This document shows positions 4,330 to 37,487 of a stretch of 44,739 nucleotides of DNA, piece by piece; positions within the stretch are counted from its first letter, which is position 1, and each line of letters opens with the position of its first letter. The stretch lies in the UHGV virus genome UHGV-0135379; one strand, written 5' to 3'. Made by a program: the position numbers and the translations under genes. Below the pieces are notes generated by a model. The model saw only the letters and a program-made list of their open reading frames with translations, did no database searches and was not told where the DNA came from. Origin of the DNA: a virus.

Positions 4330-4373
4330 AAGCCCTCCTGTAGTATCGACAGTGTAACGCATAAAAATAATAT

Positions 4374-4402
4374 TTGCAGACACCAATATAATAGGGTACT
4401 AT
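4374..4402 (+). promoter_or_regulatory. Promoter TTGCAG-N17-TACTAT with AATAG-N4-CTATT box (4390-4403); drives the 63-aa moron
   Basis: Shares a 21-bp identical core with 2242-2262; correct spacing to ATG 4431. Confidence 0.6.
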
Positions 4403-4430
4403 TCAGTTATCGGAACGAGGAGATACATAA

Positions 4431-14229: not shown

Positions 14230-14376
14230 TTTACAATAGATTATGGCCCTTCCGAATGCCGGCAGCGACACTACACTCAGTGCTGACGCACCGCTCCGTT
14301 TCCTGCCGCACCGCGGTCGCTTGTTCATACTTCACAAGCTCAGGTGGAGCTTAGCACATTTCTTAGTAAAAGTCAA
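14230..14376 (+). repeat. Copy B of the ~150-bp non-coding element (perfect 51-bp core at 14311-14361)
   Basis: Same orientation as copy A; lies in the 470-bp divergent early intergenic region. Confidence 0.8.
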
Positions 14377-15072: not shown

Positions 15073-17321
15073 ATATTGTTTTTGCAACGCTGCGCAACAC
15101 ATTCGATAAAAACCCTGTAGCGCGTGAGATGCCGCTCGAGCAGTTTGTGGAGTATGTCTGCGATACATCGAAGCGTTTATCCGTGGATCCGTCGTGGTCT
15201 AAGGAAGAGTACGACGCTGCCAAGATTAAGCAGAAAGCTATTGCGCCTGTTGGGGGTCGCCGTAAAAACGCTATCCTGGAAGACAGTGTGGTTAAGTTCG
15301 ATTTTGACCATCTCAACCGTACTCAGTACCGCGACCTTACCCGCAAATTCAAGAACGCACCGTTCTTCAATATTCTGCATACAACGGCATCGCATCAGCA
15401 TGTGTGTAAAAACGGTGATTACGCCTTCCGCGTTCTGGTTCCGGCTCGCACGCCGTTTAACTCTAACGACGCGTGGATGGTCCAACGGGCTATTTGTGCA
15501 GAGTTAGAAATAGATGAAGCCTTGCGTGACCACTGCACGGAAGACGGCAACCGCCTTATCTATCTGCCACATAGAGAGTCAAAGATAACGGTTACAGAAG
15601 GGCGTGTTATCCGTGCCGAGCGGTACATCAAGAAAGCCGAAGAGATGGGGTTGAGTAAACGTGAAGTTAAGACACTTGCCGCCGATGAGTATGGGCTTAA
15701 CGCTGATATAGCGCATTTCTGCGAAGCCGAGCTTGGCCTTGACGCTTTATCTTCCGGGCGCGGGTACGAAGTCCCATGCCCTAACGAACATCTGCATACA
15801 GGCAAAGGCTCCACAAGCATCATGCTTGATGGTAAAGAAGTGCGCTTTGTGTGCCAGCATACAAACAACGGCGCTTGCACCGAGCTTAACCGCCGACAGC
15901 ATTTGGCCCTGCGTATGTGCGGCCTGCCAGACGAGCTTAACGTAGACAAGCAACCTATCAGTATTAACAGCATTCGTGCGGCTCTGCCTGATTTACCGGA
16001 TGAAGAGATTGAAGAACTGCACCGCACAGAGAACGAGGAGCCTGTAACTTGCACGCTGGAAGACCTTGAAGAAGAGGACGAGTTACCAGAACCGGTAAAG
16101 GCTGATTTCGTCGTTGAGGGGTACATGCCGTCGGATTGTATCTGGGATATTGTCGGGGAATCCGGCACGTACAAATCATTCTATACGCTGGGGATGATGT
16201 ACCTGAGCGCCGCCGGGTACCGGTTTGCGGGGGCTGACACCCAACGTTGCCACCATTTCTATATTGACGGCGAGGGTGGTGCAGCTACACGAACACGTAT
16301 TGATGCACTCGCGGCTAAATATGGCGAGGAAGGTAAAGATTATGTACATGTCATCGATATGGGCGAAATACTCGCTACGCATGGTGATAAAAAAATTCCA
16401 GCTCTAATCCGCAGGATGCGCGAAACCGCAGGGGATGAACCTATTGGCATGGTTGCCTTCGACACCCTTAACCAGACGCTGGCCCTGACGATTGATAAGT
16501 TCGACGAGAACAGTTCATCAACGGCAATCGGTATGGGTAAAGTTATCGCCATCCTGAAAGAAGTGCGCGATGCAACTAAAGCCGCTGTCGGTGTCGTTCA
16601 CCATACTCCGAAGGGCGGAAAGAAAGCCCGCGGCAGTGGAGCATTGTATGCGGGTGTCGACGTGGAACTGACAATCGAACGCGCTACCGACCGTCAGATA
16701 AACGTATACCACTCTAAATTTAAGCACGGTCCGCAACAGAAGACGGTTGGCATGGTACTGGAGTCTGTACAGTTCCGTGAAGCACCGCCGCCGAAAGAGT
16801 ACCGCGCGGTTGAGTTCCTCGGTAGCACAGAGGAATACGGCACAATAGTAAACCTCGACCTGCCTGAGCCGCACAAGGCGCTTGTATTGATGCCGTGGGG
16901 CTTCGAGCCATTCAAGACCGACGAGGAGAAAGAGAGGGAAGAAGGGTTAACTAACGAAGGTAAACAAAATGTACGTAAAACCATAGAGAACGCCGTCAAC
17001 AGTTCCGAGGCCACGATACTCGCGGCGTTTGAACTGGCGGAGGGGACCTACAACGGCAACGAGGGCATCACGGTATCCGCAGCGAATAAGCTCGCGCAGT
17101 CTGACCCCAACGCAAAGGCGTTTAACTCCAAAGAAGCCATAGAACGCGGGAAGATTAAGAAAATGGTTGAGGCTGGGTATCTTGTTCCGGGTACTGACGA
17201 AAACAATCAGATAATCCCAGGCCGTTACAGACTGAACACCATGATAACAGATAACAAGATTCCGAAGACAATATACGAGCCGAATGAAATGCTGACAGTG
17301 ACCGAGGAGGATTTGGAATGA
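15069..17321 (+). CDS. DNA primase-polymerase (AEP-type) fused to a RecA/DnaB-like replicative helicase
   Basis: N-terminal DxD and sxH motifs (FDFDHL, ILHTTASH) plus Cys/His zinc cluster; C-terminal Walker A (GESGTYKS) and Walker B (VAFDTL). Confidence 0.8.
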   Translation: MNIVFATLRNTFDKNPVAREMPLEQFVEYVCDTSKRLSVDPSWSKEEYDAAKIKQKAIAPVGGRRKNAILEDSVVKFDFDHLNRTQYRDLTRKFKNAPFFNILHTTASHQHVCKNGDYAFRVLVPARTPFNSNDAWMVQRAICAELEIDEALRDHCTEDGNRLIYLPHRESKITVTEGRVIRAERYIKKAEEMGLSKREVKTLAADEYGLNADIAHFCEAELGLDALSSGRGYEVPCPNEHLHTGKGSTSIMLDGKEVRFVCQHTNNGACTELNRRQHLALRMCGLPDELNVDKQPISINSIRAALPDLPDEEIEELHRTENEEPVTCTLEDLEEEDELPEPVKADFVVEGYMPSDCIWDIVGESGTYKSFYTLGMMYLSAAGYRFAGADTQRCHHFYIDGEGGAATRTRIDALAAKYGEEGKDYVHVIDMGEILATHGDKKIPALIRRMRETAGDEPIGMVAFDTLNQTLALTIDKFDENSSSTAIGMGKVIAILKEVRDATKAAVGVVHHTPKGGKKARGSGALYAGVDVELTIERATDRQINVYHSKFKHGPQQKTVGMVLESVQFREAPPPKEYRAVEFLGSTEEYGTIVNLDLPEPHKALVLMPWGFEPFKTDEEKEREEGLTNEGKQNVRKTIENAVNSSEATILAAFELAEGTYNGNEGITVSAANKLAQSDPNAKAFNSKEAIERGKIKKMVEAGYLVPGTDENNQIIPGRYRLNTMITDNKIPKTIYEPNEMLTVTEEDLE

Positions 17322-17632
17322 ATATTTACGATTTTATAGATAACCCGTTTAAAGCAGTGAAGGCAGGATACCGCCCGTCATACCTGACATGTGTTTCCGC
17401 TGTAAGCAACAACTGGTGGACTTTTTGTGTGTATGCAGCGGGGATTTTTGCGGAGTTTAAAGACATTTTAGACATGACGCTGGCAGAGATTATAAAGTGC
17501 CTTTTCAAATTAATTATATCGATAACTATTGTTATAAGTTTTCCTGTAAGTGCGTGGTTTCTCGCCTGGATTCAGTACCTGAACGTGCAACACACTATTA
17601 AGAATTTGGAAGAACTCGATAAGTTGCTATAA
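17318..17632 (+). CDS. AT-rich membrane protein of unknown function (104 aa)
   Basis: ATG overlapping upstream stop; hydrophobic helices; markedly lower GC than flanks. Confidence 0.55.
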   Translation: MNIYDFIDNPFKAVKAGYRPSYLTCVSAVSNNWWTFCVYAAGIFAEFKDILDMTLAEIIKCLFKLIISITIVISFPVSAWFLAWIQYLNVQHTIKNLEELDKLL

Positions 17633-17656
17633 AAAGAAAGGGGCTTTAAGCCCCTT
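17630..17656 (-). terminator. Terminator hairpin overlapping the end of the Cro-like regulator gene
   Basis: Stem AGGGGCTT/AAGCCCCT followed by TCTTTTT on the minus strand; no T-run on the plus strand. Confidence 0.5.
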
Positions 17657-17861
17657 CACCTAACGCCAGCCACTTGGCGTCTACTTCCAGAACTTCCGCC
17701 AGTTTGAACAGCGTTGCCGGGCGGACGTCCTGAGTTACTCCAAGTGCCAGTTGGTTAATCGCGCCCTGGGAAACGCCGGTCAGGGCCGCCAAACGGCGCT
17801 GGGAGATGCCGAGTTCTTTACGGCGTTGTTCTACACGGATACCTAGTTCAGATGGTTGCAT
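17646..17861 (-). CDS. XRE-family HTH regulator (Cro/CI-like, 71 aa)
   Basis: Motif QRRLAALTGVSQGAINQL; transcribed divergently from the rightward genes across an operator-bearing promoter region. Confidence 0.8.
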   Translation of the reverse strand: MQPSELGIRVEQRRKELGISQRRLAALTGVSQGAINQLALGVTQDVRPATLFKLAEVLEVDAKWLALGEGA

Positions 17862-18234: not shown

Positions 18235-18759
18235 ATGTTAGAGAAATTCTTAGTATTACTGGAACGTTTCGTAGTTGCGCACGAACTGATTGCCGCGAAC
18301 AGTGCACGCCGTACTGAACTGCCGAAGGCTATCACTGCGCAATATGGTAAAGACGTCGACAGTGGTGTTGCAGAAACTGCAACAATCACGCCTACTGTTG
18401 TAAAAGAAGAAACAAAAGAAATCCCGGTTGAAGGTGAAGACGTAGTTGACACCAAACCGGCAGAAGAAGAAGAAGAGAAGCCTAAACGCAAGCCGCGTAA
18501 AGCTAAAGTCGAGGAACCTACGCCAGAGCCGGAAGAAGAGAAAGAAGAAGTCGATTACAAGTCTCTGCGTGACCAGATTCAGGCCATCGACGATGCAATT
18601 AATGAAGGTCCTAGCGATGCCGCGTGCGATGATTCTGATGAACTGCTGGAAGAGTTCACAGGTAAGAAGATGAAGATTGCCGCGATTAAAGACGAAGACC
18701 TGGTTGAGTACCTGGAACGCCTGACAGCAATCAAGAACAAGTATTTCGAAGAAGAATAA
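18235..18759 (+). CDS. Highly acidic early protein (174 aa)
   Basis: ATG with AGGAGA RBS; long Glu/Asp-rich segments. Confidence 0.6.
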   Translation: MLEKFLVLLERFVVAHELIAANSARRTELPKAITAQYGKDVDSGVAETATITPTVVKEETKEIPVEGEDVVDTKPAEEEEEKPKRKPRKAKVEEPTPEPEEEKEEVDYKSLRDQIQAIDDAINEGPSDAACDDSDELLEEFTGKKMKIAAIKDEDLVEYLERLTAIKNKYFEEE

Positions 18760-19075: not shown

Positions 19076-19230
19076 CGAACCGTAAAGCGCGACTTCTATT
19101 TGTTAGACGTCACCTGCCTTTTCGAGTGAGTAACTCAACTTGGCTGGTCATCTTCAACCGTAGTGGCGACACGTGCGCCTACAAACGAAAAACGCGTAAA
19201 GCTAAATGGGGCGGGAGTTTAAGAGCATGA
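19072..19230 (+). CDS. Hypothetical basic protein (52 aa)
   Basis: ATG with GGAGGT RBS; coupled at both ends by ATGA overlaps. Confidence 0.4.
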   Translation: MTNRKARLLFVRRHLPFRVSNSTWLVIFNRSGDTCAYKRKTRKAKWGGSLRA

Positions 19231-20492
19231 AACTAAAAGAACGCAGCGGCAACAACGACGTGCACGCCTTACTGTCGCCGTCAGGCGCTAAGAAATGGCT
19301 TAGTTGCGCGGCATCACTGGCCTGTGAGAAGGATATCCCTAACACGTCAGGAAAAGCCGCGGTATTAGGCACAGCAATGCACACCATCGCAGAGATGCAC
19401 CTCAACCAGTACATCAAAGGCACTGCGCTGCCGTTAGAACGTGAAGTCGGTGCTTATGTGCTGGATGAGGGCAAAGGCCAGATTAAGGCGCTAATCAGTC
19501 CGATGAAAGGCGCGGTGCTGATTACGGCTGACATGATTGAGCAAGTGCGCAAGTACACAGACTACTGCAAAGCGATTATAGACGTCGCGACTTACGCCAA
19601 GCTGGAAATGCGCGTCAACCTTACTGAGGTATTGCATCCTGGCTACATTCATAGCCCTAACGGACGGCAAGAAGAAATACAAACCTTCGGAACCGCGGAC
19701 CTTGTTGCCGTACAGGAACTGGCTAACACTGACGAGCACATGCTTATCATTGGCGACCTGAAAACCGGGCGGCATCGTGTCGAAGCGAAAGAAAACAAGC
19801 AGCTTATGCTTTACGCTCTCGGTGTTTATCGCCGGCTCAAGAGACGTTATAACATAACAACGGTTCGTCTGGTAATCTTCCAGCCGTATGCCGGAGGTGC
19901 GTCGGAGTGGGATATCTCGGTTGAAGGTATGGAACTGTTCGCTAAGTTCGCACAGAAACGCGCGCTGTTAGCCCTTGATGCTTATTCCCGTGGCAAGAAG
20001 AACCTTAAAGCGTCGGACTTCAAGCCGTCGGTAGATGGTTGTCAGTGGTGTCGTTTCTCGGAACAGTGCGCAGCTCGTACAAAAACCGTTAACGCGGTAC
20101 TGGCGGAAGAACTTGAGGACGACTGTGCGCTGGAACTTACGCCAGAGCAACTCGTCGCTGAGTATGAGAAGCTGCCGTTGTTGCGCCAGCACATCGACAA
20201 GGTTGAGAAAGCGATGGCTGCTGCTTTGCATTCAGGTAAGAAAGTGCCAGGATACAAACTGGTTGAAGGTCGCCCCGGTAATCGTGCGTGGAAAGATACC
20301 GACGCAGTATTCGAGAAGTACGGTACTATGCTGCAAAAGGTAGTTCTTATGACACCGACCGAAGCGGTTAAAATTGTACCGGAAGAAGAACTGAAAGACT
20401 TCATTACCCGTAAGCCCGGTGCGCCATGCGTCGCAACGGCGGATGACAAACGTCCTGAGTGGAATCAAGTTACAGAGGAGGATTTAGAATGA
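19227..20492 (+). CDS. PD-(D/E)XK family exonuclease with C-terminal Cys cluster (RecB/Cas4-like)
   Basis: Motifs IGDLKTG and QLMLYA, Cys cluster CQWCRFSEQC; ATG at 19227 with GGGAG RBS (track ORF starts at 19206). Confidence 0.7.
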   Translation: MKLKERSGNNDVHALLSPSGAKKWLSCAASLACEKDIPNTSGKAAVLGTAMHTIAEMHLNQYIKGTALPLEREVGAYVLDEGKGQIKALISPMKGAVLITADMIEQVRKYTDYCKAIIDVATYAKLEMRVNLTEVLHPGYIHSPNGRQEEIQTFGTADLVAVQELANTDEHMLIIGDLKTGRHRVEAKENKQLMLYALGVYRRLKRRYNITTVRLVIFQPYAGGASEWDISVEGMELFAKFAQKRALLALDAYSRGKKNLKASDFKPSVDGCQWCRFSEQCAARTKTVNAVLAEELEDDCALELTPEQLVAEYEKLPLLRQHIDKVEKAMAAALHSGKKVPGYKLVEGRPGNRAWKDTDAVFEKYGTMLQKVVLMTPTEAVKIVPEEELKDFITRKPGAPCVATADDKRPEWNQVTEEDLE

Positions 20493-20692
20493 TTCAAGTA
20501 AATGAAATGCCGACTGATAAAGATTTTTTGATGGTATGGCGCTGGGATGGGTATCTACACTCGGAATCGTTCACGTTCTTGAACGGTACCATGATGCGAT
20601 ACGACCCTGTAGAGGATGAGTTCGAACCGGCCAATATGCTTAATTTCGAGAACATAATCCCTATTGCAAAATTTTATTTGACACATGAATAG
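20489..20692 (+). CDS. Hypothetical protein (67 aa)
   Basis: ATG overlapping exonuclease stop, GAGGAGGA RBS embedded in the exonuclease C-terminal codons. Confidence 0.5.
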   Translation: MIQVNEMPTDKDFLMVWRWDGYLHSESFTFLNGTMMRYDPVEDEFEPANMLNFENIIPIAKFYLTHE

Positions 20693-20706
20693 TTAGCTAT
20701 TATAGT
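20678..20706 (+). promoter_or_regulatory. Promoter TTGACA-N17-TATAGT with AATAG-TTAG-CTATT operator; upstream of SSB-like and DNA polymerase genes
   Basis: Near-identical architecture to 17926-17954; overlaps the stop of gene 20489-20692. Confidence 0.65.
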
Positions 20707-20764
20707 TCTAATCACTGGCCGGGCAGATCCCGGAGTAAACTGAAACTGAAAAGCGAGAAATCAA

Positions 20765-21394
20765 ATGGGACTGAAATTAAATCTGCGTAAAGTAAACACT
20801 GCCTGGGTTAACGTATTCGAACGCGAAAAAGACCGTGAAAACGACGATGGCTCAATCACTAAAGGTCAGTACAGCGCTACTATTATCCTGCCGTCCGACC
20901 ACGCGCAAATCGACGCGCTCTACGACACCGTTTACGCGGTAGTCGAAGAAGCGTTAGGCGCCGCCGCTGCCGAGAAATGGATGAAGTCCAACTACGGCGA
21001 AGGTAAGCACATGGATAAATGTGCGATTAAAGACATTGCCGAGCGCGACAATCCGTTCGAAGACTTCCCGGAAGGCTTCTACTTCAAAGCGAAGGCACAG
21101 AAACAGCCACTGATTGTAACCTCTAAAAAAGGTGAGACTCAGGTAGAGCAGGACTTCAATGTAGACGGCGAACAGATTGAAGGTGAACAGGTTTACAGTG
21201 GCTGCGTTGCTAACGTAAGCGTAGAAATCTGGTTCAGTCAGAAATACAAAGTTCTCGGTGTTAACCTGTTGGCAATTAAGTACGTTGGAGAAGGTAAAGC
21301 GTTCGGCGGTTCTAAAGTCGCCGCGAGCGTCAATGACCTGGAAGACGACGAAGAGGATGAAGCACCACGCCGCGAACGTCGTCGCCGTGGTTAA
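20765..21394 (+). CDS. Putative ssDNA-binding protein (T7 gp2.5-like)
   Basis: Similar size and acidic C-terminal region (DLEDDEEDEA); sits just upstream of DNA polymerase; terminator follows. Confidence 0.5.
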   Translation: MGLKLNLRKVNTAWVNVFEREKDRENDDGSITKGQYSATIILPSDHAQIDALYDTVYAVVEEALGAAAAEKWMKSNYGEGKHMDKCAIKDIAERDNPFEDFPEGFYFKAKAQKQPLIVTSKKGETQVEQDFNVDGEQIEGEQVYSGCVANVSVEIWFSQKYKVLGVNLLAIKYVGEGKAFGGSKVAASVNDLEDDEEDEAPRRERRRRG

Positions 21395-21413
21395 TATCTG
21401 AATCTGTTTAACT

Positions 21414-21437
21414 AAGGCCCTTCATTGGGCCTTTTTA
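21414..21437 (+). terminator. Rho-independent terminator after the SSB-like gene
   Basis: Hairpin AAGGCCC-TTCATT-GGGCCTT followed by TTTTT. Confidence 0.6.
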
Positions 21438-21453
21438 CTAAGGGTCGAAAATA

Positions 21454-23625
21454 ATGAGTTACCTGTTCTTAGACTTTGAAACATTCTCCGAAGCCGATTT
21501 AAAGAAAGTCGGCTCCTACGCTTACGCCGAACACCCGTCAACCGAAGTGCTAATCTGCACATATGCCTTTGATGACGAGCCTGTACAGGTATGGGATTGC
21601 ACCGACGGCAGCGACATGCCGGGAGATTTGCACCGCGCCTTGCGCCGCCTGGTTAAGCCAAACAGCCGCACCAAGATGGTGTGGCACAACGGCTCAATGT
21701 TCGATAGGCTCATCATGAAGCACTGCTGGGGTTTTGATATTCCCGTAAGCAACACCATTGATACGATGATTTGGGCGTTTCGTCACGCGCTGCCAGGTTC
21801 ACTGGATGCCTTGTGCGAAGTGTTGGGCGTATCCGCCGACAACGCGAAAGATAAACGCGGCAAGGCGCTGATTCAGCGTTTCTCTAAACCGACACCGAAG
21901 AACTACAAAATCAGACGCTATACCGCAGAAACACACCCGGACGAGTGGGCGCTGTTCATCAAGTACGCCGTGAGCGACATCACCGCGATGCGTGAAGTCT
22001 TCCATAAGCTGCCACGTTGGGGTAACTCCGAGTTCGAAGACCGTGTACTGGAACTTGACCAGTTAATAAATGACCGCGGGTTTAAGGTTGACGTTGCACT
22101 GGCAGAAGCCGCGATTGAAGCCGTGGAGAAGCACAAGGCGCAGTTACAGGAAGAAGCCCAACGAAAATACGGTGGCTCTCTTACTGGTAAGGACTTCCTG
22201 CCGATTCTGCGTGAACTTGCGCCAGCGCACCGTATCCACAACGCGCAGAAGTCAACGCTTAACGACCTGCTGGCGGATGAGGATTTACCCGACGACGCCC
22301 GCACAATTATAGAAATGCGCCTCGGGGCCGCGTCCACTGCGTCAACGAAATATAACCCGCTGCTGTTGGGTCGCTCGTCGGACGACCGCCGCCGTGGTTG
22401 CATCCAGTACGGTGGGGCCAAGCGTACGTTACGGTTCGCAGGTAAAGGCTTCCAACCACAGAACCTGGCGCGCGGGTACTATCACGATGATGAACTGGAT
22501 AAGGGCATTTCAGCGCTACTTAAGGGTCGTGCGCATCGCCGTTTCGACGTAGCCAAGCTAACGGCGTCGACGGTTCGTAGCTGTATTATCCCGGAAGCAG
22601 GGCATAAGTTTGTCGTAGCCGATTACTCTAACGTTGAAGGCCGTGGTTTGGCGTGGCTGGCTGGCGAAGACGATTTAATAGAAGTATTTGTAAACGGGGT
22701 TGATGTGTATAAGAAACTCGCATCAACCGTGTTCAACGTTAGTTATGACGACGTAACAAAGGACCAAAGACAAATAGCCAAAGCAATGGTTCTCGGACTG
22801 GGTTACGCGGGGGGTGTAGGGGCTTTCGTCACGTTTGCTAAAAACTTAGGGCTTGATTTGAACGATATGGCCCGTACTTTAGACGGGACTTTCCCTGACC
22901 ATATCTGGGCCGCTACCGCACGAGGATATGAATGGGCGCGTATTCAGGAAGCCAAGCGACCGCCACGTCCTGGTGAAAAAGATGACCGACCATCATATAT
23001 TCTTGATAAGAAAGTTTGGCGCACCTGTGACGCTTTAAAGCGCATGTACCGGGAAGCTAACCCAGCAATAGTCCAATTCTGGCGCGATATTGAAGATGCA
23101 GCTATGGCGGCTATCCGCAATCCGGGTAAAGAGTTCACCGCAGGGCCGCGCGGGGTTAAGTTTTCGCGTAACGTAGAGACAGATAACAACGGCAACAAAG
23201 TCGCTGGTTGGTGGTTGCGTATGACGCTGCCGTCGGGTCGTGTTATGTCTTATCCAGGCGTCGGGTTAAGCGTATCAAAAGAGACAGACGAAGACGGGAA
23301 GGTGTCTACTAACGTGCGCATCAAGTACCAGGGCGAAAATCAGCTAACCCGACAGTGGGGGTTCCAGTACACATATTCCGGTAAACTCGTGGAAAACTGT
23401 ACGCAGGCGCTGTGCCGTGATTTGCTGGCTAATGCACTGCTGAACGTAGAAGCAAACGGCTACCCTATTGTACTTCATGTACACGATGAACTGGTATGTG
23501 AAACTCCAGATACGCCGGAATACAACGTAGCTGAACTGGAGAAATTAATGTGTGCGTTGCCAGAGTGGGCAGAGGGCTTCCCTCTTGTAGCAGAAGGTAG
23601 CGAAATGTACAGATACGCCAAGTAG
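21454..23625 (+). CDS. Family A DNA polymerase with 3'-5' exonuclease domain
   Basis: Exo I motif FLDFETFS; polymerase motif B (K...YG) and motif C (VHDE). Confidence 0.9.
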   Translation: MSYLFLDFETFSEADLKKVGSYAYAEHPSTEVLICTYAFDDEPVQVWDCTDGSDMPGDLHRALRRLVKPNSRTKMVWHNGSMFDRLIMKHCWGFDIPVSNTIDTMIWAFRHALPGSLDALCEVLGVSADNAKDKRGKALIQRFSKPTPKNYKIRRYTAETHPDEWALFIKYAVSDITAMREVFHKLPRWGNSEFEDRVLELDQLINDRGFKVDVALAEAAIEAVEKHKAQLQEEAQRKYGGSLTGKDFLPILRELAPAHRIHNAQKSTLNDLLADEDLPDDARTIIEMRLGAASTASTKYNPLLLGRSSDDRRRGCIQYGGAKRTLRFAGKGFQPQNLARGYYHDDELDKGISALLKGRAHRRFDVAKLTASTVRSCIIPEAGHKFVVADYSNVEGRGLAWLAGEDDLIEVFVNGVDVYKKLASTVFNVSYDDVTKDQRQIAKAMVLGLGYAGGVGAFVTFAKNLGLDLNDMARTLDGTFPDHIWAATARGYEWARIQEAKRPPRPGEKDDRPSYILDKKVWRTCDALKRMYREANPAIVQFWRDIEDAAMAAIRNPGKEFTAGPRGVKFSRNVETDNNGNKVAGWWLRMTLPSGRVMSYPGVGLSVSKETDEDGKVSTNVRIKYQGENQLTRQWGFQYTYSGKLVENCTQALCRDLLANALLNVEANGYPIVLHVHDELVCETPDTPEYNVAELEKLMCALPEWAEGFPLVAEGSEMYRYAK

Positions 23626-37309: not shown

Positions 37310-37416
37310 TCTTTAATCCTTTGGTTAAGAGGTTACTGGTTAAAGGAAATGCGCCAGACGGGAACCACCCGCTTTTCGTGTGCGACACTAGGCGCAAAAT
37401 TATTCTAACATACTAC

Positions 37417-37445
37417 TTGCACACCCTGATATAATAGCGTACTAT
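37417..37445 (+). promoter_or_regulatory. Promoter TTGCAC-N17-TACTAT with AATAG-CGTA-CTATT box (37433-37446); drives the 4-gene plus-strand island
   Basis: Same architecture as the moron and leftward early promoters; about 40 nt upstream of ATG 37488. Confidence 0.6.
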
Positions 37446-37487
37446 TCACTTACACCAACGATGTTATCTCAAATCAGGAGTTATGTT

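Follow-up and report, generated by a model that had tools for sequence, protein, structure and literature searches.

An acidic C-terminal peptide common to the primase-helicase and exonuclease of a Kagunavirus-like phage, with a related copy in its single-stranded DNA-binding protein, is conserved among relatives and is probably a docking tag

We analyzed the virus genome UHGV-0135379, a stretch of 44,739 nucleotides (nt; hereafter the window) from a Kagunavirus-like coliphage of the Guernseyvirinae (best match Escherichia phage vB_EcoM_SHAK7858, 95.5%; 474 related phage records), with a focus on a short acidic peptide, VTEEDLE, at the ends of two of its genes. An initial annotation, made from the letters alone, had named these genes as a primase-helicase and a PD-(D/E)XK exonuclease and had stated that both proteins end in these seven residues. 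Family searches bore out the two names (phrog_3228 and AAA_25 for the former; DUF2800, PDDEXK_1 and phrog_69 for the latter), and the translations of both open reading frames (ORFs) gave the same VTEEDLE end (Table 1). The primase-helicase gene closes with ACA GTG ACC GAG GAG GAT TTG GAA TGA at 17295-17321 (T V T E E D L E stop) and the exonuclease gene with GTT ACA GAG GAG GAT TTA GAA TGA at 20469-20492 (V T E E D L E stop), the DNA common to both ends being GAGGAGGATTT(G/A)GAATGA. At both sites, GAGGAGG stands 7 nt 5' of an ATG that overlaps the stop codon. For this window, the further claim also proved correct that the following gene takes its ribosome-binding site (RBS) and an ATGA start from the tail DNA.

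The two genes belong to a replication region with a recognizable organization. By gene order and Pfam matches, the exonuclease, a gp2.5-like SSB (a protein that binds single-stranded DNA, or ssDNA) and a family A DNA polymerase (PolA) form a duf2800-gp2.5-polA module in canonical order at 19206-23625. This module (Steczkiewicz 2012) is defined by adjacent genes for a DUF2800 PD-(D/E)XK nuclease, a gp2.5-like SSB and PolA, without a classical ssb (PMC8093625). The C-terminal alignment of the primase-helicase indicated a last folded domain, then a variable linker and then the tail; a sequence search of the PDB with this protein returned no match. Databases place the exonuclease start at 19227, giving 421 amino acids (aa), and the 421-aa protein P0001 is identical to it at 100%. 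Each of the two tails is followed by a small accessory gene, of which the first (phrog_2638) is missing in many relatives, such as Bas75. A promoter-like site at 20678-20706 precedes the SSB gene.

Table 1. Genes of the replication region and acidic motif copies in the window.
Feature	Positions	Strand	Evidence or remark
Primase-helicase gene, 750 aa	15069..17321	+	ORF; phrog_3228 'replicative helicase-primase', full-length match, E=0; Pfam AAA_25 at residues 328-517
VTEEDLE motif, primase-helicase residues 744-750	17298..17318	+	C-terminal end
GAGGAGGATTTGGAATGA, primase-helicase tail codons doubling as Shine-Dalgarno and ATGA stop/start overlap for 17318-17632	17304..17321	+	
Accessory gene, 104 aa, phrog_2638, function unknown	17318..17632	+	Between tail and terminator 17636-17657
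Exonuclease gene, 428 aa	19206..20492	+	Pfam DUF2800 (E=4.6e-66) and PDDEXK_1; phrog_69 'exonuclease'
LAEELEDD, degenerate internal motif copy in exonuclease variable linker after Cys cluster	20100..20123	+	Alignment
VTEEDLE motif, exonuclease residues 422-428	20469..20489	+	C-terminal end
GAGGAGGATTTAGAATGA, exonuclease tail codons doubling as Shine-Dalgarno and ATGA overlap for 20489-20692	20475..20492	+	
Accessory gene, 67 aa, phrog_6314, function unknown	20489..20692	+	Between exonuclease stop and promoter-like site 20678-20706
gp2.5-like / Enc34-type (DUF2815) ssDNA-binding and annealing protein	20765..21394	+	Pfam PF10991 (E=6.7e-16); phrog_112
SVNDLEDD at start of SSB C-terminal tail	21326..21349	+	Residues 188-195 of 209; then acidic, then basic tract EEDEAPRRERRRRG
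Family A DNA polymerase (PolA)	21454..23625	+	Pfam DNA_pol_A (E=9e-23); PDB matches to Pol I palm region

The 18-mer GAGGAGGATTTRGAATGA had just these two sites in the window, even with three mismatches allowed, against an expectation of 0.02 from shuffles. When all 379 stop-to-stop ORFs of 50 aa or more were compared, a common C-terminal suffix of seven residues was an outlier, the next longest being four residues; the exception was one 13-residue match produced by a 71-nt DNA repeat elsewhere. No further ORF in the window carried [STAV][DE][DEG]DL at its C-terminus.

We gathered about 108 related loci holding both genes (L001-L108) and extracted both gene ends from each. After removal of redundancy, by junction sequence only, the conservation set comprised 68 primase-helicase and 77 exonuclease junctions, with protein identity down to ~30-45%; many of the loci derive from a single metagenome (3300045988). 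The motif was present in both proteins across all related clades, in the general form [VA][TS][DE][DEG]DLx. An end of the type ..[DEG]DLx(0-3)-COOH was kept in 65 of the 68 primase-helicase junctions and 71 of the 77 exonuclease junctions, and the exceptions consisted of near-variants such as ERDLE, DADLE, NSDLED and DKDLSNE, one L-to-S change, one stop-loss extension and the three most distant loci. Among tails in register, D and L were invariant (46/46 for the primase-helicase and 48/48 for the exonuclease). The primase-helicase tail forms a conserved island after a linker that varies in both length and sequence, with D-L as the sole invariant residues in the last 40 alignment columns. Codons varied at fixed residues: Leu was encoded by TTG, TTA or CTG, Glu by GAG or GAA, Val by GTG, GTT, GTA or GTC, and Thr by three or four codons. 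The motif also persisted in clades in which the primase-helicase is only ~30% identical and lies on the opposite strand, and distant clades spelled it with quite different DNA, such as GCGACCGATGACGACTTAAAAGATTAA. This comparative evidence shows purifying selection on the VTEEDLE peptide in both enzymes, which are unrelated to each other.

The comparison also established that the proteins of a given genome carry a lineage-specific version of the motif. Jerseyvirus-like phages end their primase-helicase in ..TTEGDLE and their exonuclease in ..VTEDDLE(A); the corresponding tails are ..VASDEDLNS and ..QASDEDLS in Guernseyvirinae resembling Klebsiella phage VLCpiS11a, and ..SATDDDLKD and ..EATDEDLSNE in Dhillonvirus (Gluttony, Pride and Sloth). 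Three further lineages, represented by L073, L104 and L105, kept the motif as well. When the primase-helicase and exonuclease tails of one genome were compared at the five positions before D-L, 16 identities were counted across seven lineages, against a permutation mean of 10.7 (p = 0.022, a value that ignores phylogeny, as do the association p values given below).

A duplicated coupling cassette had been put forward initially as an equally likely source of the identical ends. Both window junctions are textbook examples of translational coupling by an ATGA overlap with an in-frame upstream Shine-Dalgarno (SD) sequence; among relatives, however, coupling is facultative, whereas the peptide is constant. 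We scored a junction as coupled when an ORF of at least 35 aa started between -12 and +10 nt from the stop. The motif was kept at 61 junctions without a co-directional gene within 10 nt of the stop (36 for the primase-helicase and 25 for the exonuclease). Uncoupled primase-helicase genes stop at TAG or TAA and have a terminator hairpin immediately 3' (GTAAAAAGAAAGGGGC..GCCCC), as in the annotated phage Bas75, and uncoupled exonuclease genes stop at TAA, followed by a TTGACA-17-TATTAT promoter-like site. These exonuclease genes use GAAGAAGAT and close with GTT AGT GAA GAA GAT TTG GAA TAA, which encodes VSEEDLE without an SD sequence or ATGA. Indeed, SD-like GGAGG or GAGGA was found at 45 of the 47 coupled but only 2 of the 25 uncoupled exonuclease junctions (Fisher p=2e-14). 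With the peptide kept at 61 uncoupled junctions and the SD sequence lost from uncoupled exonuclease genes, the equal standing of the cassette was not borne out.

The DNA likeness of the two window sites spans 25 nt at 88% match and is centered on the motif. A search for extended DNA homology around both sites found none beyond ~25 nt, and the downstream proteins are unrelated; with a match of this size, duplication of the site was rejected. In the relatives, both junctions are hot spots for small genes, with eight unrelated families found 3' of the primase-helicase gene and 11 found 3' of the exonuclease gene. Nearly all of these accessory genes start at the ATGA overlap, and many encode small, hydrophobic, membrane-like proteins. 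Across the eight and 11 families, no downstream gene family was common to both junctions, which led us to reject a recombination joint at which the same accessory gene would enter either junction in different phages. Each accessory gene of the window occupies precisely the interval from the tail to the element that uncoupled relatives have right next to the stop, namely the terminator at 17636-17657 for the first and the promoter-like site at 20678-20706 for the second.

We rejected the cassette reading because the peptide is kept irrespective of a downstream gene, SD sequence or ATGA, because the similarity extends over ~25 nt and because no downstream family is held in common. Taken together, the peptide, the SD sequence and the overlap of ATG and stop leave only the Asp and Leu codons free, and the peptide thus accounts for the near-identity of the DNA. 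One possible spelling of the acidic codons is GAG GAG GAT ... GAA TGA, and it is the one used when an accessory gene directly follows the stop. The RBS and ATGA are therefore a secondary overlay, a consequence rather than a cause of the peptide. The case calls for caution when genes are read from sequence alone, since an in-frame SD sequence where a gene ends may merely accompany an acidic peptide that has a function of its own.

The motif is common to a third protein of the module. In the SSB of the window, SVNDLEDD opens the C-terminal tail with constant spacing from the ..FGG at which the oligonucleotide/oligosaccharide-binding (OB) fold ends, a position equivalent to that of ..DDFDD[LI].. 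in distant SSBs. The SSB tail takes the form SV[ND]DLEDD in Kaguna- and Jersey-type phages, ETATDDDLGDDDD in L073 and L104, SDEDLGDDD in Dhillonvirus and NDDDLDDDD in the Klebsiella clade. In addition to its C-terminal motif, the exonuclease has an internal copy, which is degenerate in the window (LAEELEDD) and reads TATD[DE]DLGD in Dhillonvirus-type and related clades; at the corresponding internal site, the distant DUF2800 consensus reads DFxDL. In Klebsiella phage VLCpiS11a, the 62-aa protein S11a_00023 (L189:9571-9759) also ends in the module motif (..MTATDEDLE). Basic proteins of this type, 62-63 aa long (also L051:12408-12599) and with the tail ..RRRKAMTATDEDLE, had no family match, and their gene lies just upstream of the polymerase gene and overlaps its start. 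Judging by this position and tail, they are possibly small polymerase-associated factors.

The SSB tails of the Dhillonvirus and Klebsiella clades (L051-L074, L104 and L105) are expanded after the motif by two or three alternating acidic (D/E x 8-12) and basic (PRKRRK or PRRRR) tracts. These expanded tails always end in a basic run, which is unusual, as SSB tails are normally purely acidic.

We then examined more distant modules. The depth of DUF2800 conservation was assessed by an exhaustive search of 50%-identity representatives, a word-indexed search with the exonuclease having given only proteins of at least 83% identity. All DUF2800 representatives of at least 40% identity have x[DE]xDLx[DE] as their C-terminus. 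In more distant ones it is ..KRPAL(5-9)[DE][DE]F[DE]D[LIV].., to which a second tip, ..DL[VIL]-COOH, is often added; by spacing from the conserved KRP, the TEEDLE of the window corresponds to the first element of this distant tail. A distant set of 80 loci (L109-L188) included relatives of Bordetella phage BPP-1 and Xylella phage Xfas53. In these genomes, the adjacent PF10991 SSB and nuclease end in the same bipartite tail, as illustrated by the SSB and nuclease of L119 (..EDDFEDVTSDENVEDLV and ..EDEFDDIAEGATADDLV) and of L146 (..ADEFTDVSVDDLV and ..EDEFDDLTAGASAGDLV). The nuclease and SSB of BPP-1-like phages have one lineage-specific tail in common, ..DDFEDL..DLV.

The DL[VILA]-COOH tip was 16-fold enriched at C-termini relative to internal positions (the loci being non-independent), with six Leu codons and 13 last-residue codons in use. 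By family, it occurred in 27 of 74 nucleases (broad definition), 44 of 72 SSBs, 11 of 17 Sf6-TerS-like proteins and 7 of 10 GapR-like proteins. We toned down the idea that the tip is a general tag of all DNA enzymes, as these four families dominate and methylases, Mom and an AEP-VapE primase carry it sporadically. In several BPP-1-like loci among L109-L188, the gene next to that of the SSB, on its 3' side, encodes a GapR-like protein (PF10073; 85-95 aa) that ends in ..A[IL]GLDL[IV]; the Sf6-TerS-like proteins of the same set, ~150-170 aa long, end in ..DGSDL[AVL].

PolA was encoded just downstream in 56 of the 80 distant loci, and the tip was found in 0 of 56 non-redundant PolA C-termini. The polymerase C-termini are basic, reading ..GFExxRYRK[DE] in the distant loci and ..YRYAK in the window, and never acidic. 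Of the four core replication proteins that we compared, the primase-helicase, exonuclease and SSB have the tail and PolA alone is without it. In ten distant loci (L135, L160 (14062-15852), L164, L171, L173, L180, L182, L185, L187 and L188), the PolA slot is filled by a PolB-like protein of ~593 aa with the motifs DxE, DVTSYYP, KITINGSFG and NTDG and sub-threshold Pfam PolB scores; this protein looks like a non-orthologous polymerase replacement inside the module. The type of tip was associated with the type of polymerase, PolB-like genomes having SSBs that end in ..DF[MLIV] or ..DDF and nucleases without the tip (Fisher p=0.03 and 0.01, uncorrected).

Taking these results together, we consider it probable that the shared tail is a docking tag of the known T7-like kind, borne by the helicase-primase, the exonuclease and the SSB. 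We infer the docking function and its receptor by analogy with systems in which such contacts have been described. VTEEDLE is a selected C-terminal short linear motif with the core [TS]-[DE]-[DEG]-D-L-x-COOH, and represents the local form of the acidic tail that characterizes the duf2800-gp2.5-polA module. Such a peptide would let the helicase-primase, nuclease and SSB bind one basic receptor site, or take turns at it. The PolA encoded just downstream might be this receptor; we favor it, tentatively, because it is the core protein that lacks the tail and because the tip type differs with the polymerase type. A sequence search of the PDB with PolA matched the Pol I palm region only. The shared docking motif proposed initially thus gained support from selection and homology and from the SSB copy.

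In phage T7, one front basic patch of gp5 receives both the tail of gp2.5 and a DTDF peptide that imitates the tail of gp4 (PDB 6P7E; PMC12339929). As with T7 gp4 and gp2.5, the helicase-primase and the gp2.5-type SSB of one phage here bear similar acidic peptides in their C-terminal regions, after linkers that may be flexible, and their module also includes a gene for a family A polymerase. The motif forms the last seven residues of the primase-helicase, where it is preceded by a linker of variable length, and four of the seven are D or E. The present system differs from that of T7 in that the PD-(D/E)XK recombination exonuclease is also tailed, twice in some clades, and in that the helicase is AAA_25/RepA-like and not a recognizable gp4 homologue by these searches. 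Enc34-type SSBs are gp2.5-like, and their acidic tails have been described as protein-interaction segments (PMC5686142). The window agrees with the duf2800-gp2.5-polA and Enc34 ORF6 systems in its canonical gene order and in having an SSB of the kind with a described unstructured acidic C-terminal segment.

Several observations weigh against a T7-like docking tag. The C-terminal Phe that is essential in the T7 tails is absent: the window proteins end in ..DLE and those of relatives in ..DLx(0-3), with Leu as the sole conserved hydrophobic residue, although Phe is present in the distant forms ..DDFEDL.. and ..DDF. In contrast to T7 gp2.5, the SSB copy in the window is internal, with an acidic and then a basic tract after it. 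An AlphaFold2 (AF2) model of the window SSB, built from an 11-sequence alignment, had a mean predicted local distance difference test score (pLDDT) of 36 and a predicted template modeling score (pTM) of 0.38 and supports no inference. In the ten PolB-like loci, the nuclease and SSB keep acidic DF tails, and a strictly PolA-specific receptor is thus unnecessary. Finally, the covariation and association p values take no account of phylogeny in a sample with many loci from one metagenome. Because it has no terminal aromatic residue, includes a nuclease and has a non-terminal copy in the SSB, we do not place the tail in the T7 tail class; by these comparisons it is assigned to the general class of acidic C-terminal docking tags of phage replisomes.

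Other docking systems offer parallels of varying closeness. The bacterial SSB tip, ..DDDIPF, is a short acidic-hydrophobic docking tag in which only the SSB is tagged and many clients have receptor pockets. Here, by contrast, several clients are tagged, which implies one receptor for many, and Pro-Phe is absent. In eukaryotes, the basic cleft of RPA70N binds acidic-hydrophobic motifs of ATRIP, RAD9, MRE11 and p53, and an OB-fold ssDNA groove can be such a receptor. The T4 gp45 clamp binds the C-terminal peptides of gp43, gp33 and gp55. As with RPA70N and gp45, one surface would receive similar peptides on unrelated DNA-metabolism proteins, an analogy of logic without homology. We noticed no clamp gene among the ORFs examined, a set smaller than a screen of the whole window.

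The main alternative to PolA as receptor is possible, if rather doubtful: the tails could occupy the ssDNA-binding OB groove of the gp2.5-like SSB, from which nascent ssDNA would displace them, handing the SSB/annealase onto DNA. In a more detailed form, which we hold just as loosely, the ssDNA-making helicase and the 5'-3' exonuclease would hold apo-SSB, and the tail of the SSB itself would serve as a placeholder in cis or in trans. Among exonuclease-annealase pairs, lambda Exo-Beta and RecE-RecT touch physically. No part of the module varies less than the nuclease-SSB gene pair, and the retention of acidic tails under PolB-like replacement fits an SSB groove somewhat better than it fits PolA. 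In the Enc34 ORF6 crystal, the acidic C-terminus sits in the concave beta-sheet groove of a neighboring molecule and buries 842 A^2, and the same arrangement is seen in two other DUF2815 structures and in T7 gp2.5 (PMC5686142); AF2 models gp2.5 with its tail in the basic groove of the same molecule (PMC12339929). However, a site for an acidic DNA mimic should not demand an invariant Asp-Leu, and classically the SSB tail recruits partners, rather than partner tails binding the SSB. Furthermore, a similar tip occurs in distant lineages on GapR-like and small-terminase-like proteins, which make no ssDNA.

It is unlikely that the tails are autoinhibitory DNA mimics acting in cis, each folding onto the DNA-binding surface of its own protein with no common partner. 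Every carrier found is a DNA-acting protein, and tail removal alters DNA binding by T7 gp2.5 and T4 gp32, while Enc34 ORF6 without its tail binds double-stranded DNA as well (PMC5686142). For such a role, though, general acidity would suffice, leaving the invariant D-L and the extreme C-terminal position unexplained. Nor would it account for the same lineage-specific sequence on non-homologous proteins, changing in parallel between lineages.

Still less probable is a tail directed at a host factor, such as the beta sliding clamp, the partners of host SSB or a protease adaptor that recognizes a C-terminal degron. The T4 polymerase, gp33 and gp55 do reach the gp45 clamp by common C-terminal peptides, and some distant carriers end in ..GLDLI or ..GLDLV, resembling the clamp-binding pentapeptide QL[SD]LF. 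VTEEDLE, however, has Glu as its last residue and neither the Gln nor the final two hydrophobic residues of clamp motifs, and it bears no likeness to an ssrA-type LAA degron or to the SSB DDDIPF tip. The motif also differs between phages of the same host, E. coli (TEEDLE in Kagunavirus and TDDDLKD in Dhillonvirus), which suits a co-evolving phage receptor better. When known motifs were matched one by one, VTEEDLE lacked Gln 1 and the last two hydrophobic residues of the beta-clamp-binding motif (QL[SD]LF or QLxLxL), which the distant small ..GLDLI proteins approach; an ssrA-type degron was rejected on sequence; and the bacterial SSB-Ct tip (D-D-D-[IL]-P-F, PF00436) was absent, the SSB here belonging to PF10991 and having no Pro-Phe terminus.

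Least credible of all is a cause at the DNA level, with a duplicated or convergent coupling cassette (SD plus ATGA) or a recombination joint for accessory genes leaving the peptide as a by-product: both window sites do offer GAGGAGG with an ATGA overlap, and both junctions host differing small genes (eight and 11 families) that start at the same ATGA, but the peptide outlasts the coupled gene at 61 junctions and the SD sequence in uncoupled exonuclease genes, the similarity stops at ~25 nt before unrelated downstream proteins with no family in common, and distant clades use quite different DNA, as in GCGACCGATGACGACTTAAAAGATTAA.

Three other features of the window were recorded. The 71-nt direct repeat that produced the 13-residue suffix match (92% identity between copies) lies at 2094-2164 and 14306-14376, 12.2 kb apart, with the second copy intergenic and upstream of early/replication genes. 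A 46-nt repeat family at 2217-2262, 4360-4405 and 37403-37448 (72-100% identity) contains a promoter-like ..TTTGC..N..ATATAATAGGGTACTATTCA; from their sequence, these repeats may be phage promoters with a conserved extended discriminator/leader. Between a regulator gene and the exonuclease gene, positions 18235-18759 encode a strongly acidic, Lys/Glu-rich protein of 174 aa (phrog_3127) that ends in ..KYFEEE and is named '13.88 kDa late protein' or hypothetical in relatives.

A tail common to the nuclease, primase-helicase and SSB was not mentioned in the literature we searched, which included PMC8093625, PMC5686142 and a retron IX preprint; the nearest statement concerned a Dhillonvirus DUF2800 protein with a predicted disordered C-terminal region. 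Returning to the docking tag, we suggest, as a speculative extension, that the module may use a lineage-specific C-terminal 'address' peptide on the SSB and its clients, converging on one co-evolving receptor. The address may take the form T[DE][DE]DL-COOH in Guernseyvirinae and Dhillonvirus and DDFxDL...DL[VI]-COOH in BPP-1-like phages. Its clients may comprise the nuclease, the primase-helicase and the small protein encoded upstream of PolA. A similar tip is carried elsewhere by proteins of the GapR-like and small-terminase-like kinds and, more rarely, by methyltransferases, which may be clients in those lineages. If true, phages would have their own counterpart of the PCNA/PIP-box or RPA70N hub, with the polarity of SSB-Ct reversed: many tagged clients and one receptor. 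The duf2800-gp2.5-polA module is among the commonest replication and recombination cassettes of tailed phages across many bacterial phyla, being found in BASEL coliphages, Salmonella Jersey-like phages and Bordetella phage BPP-1. For phages with this module, the shared tail offers a cheap, concrete handle on protein coordination, that is, on the coupling of replication and recombination, and it could account for specificity barriers when phages exchange module genes.

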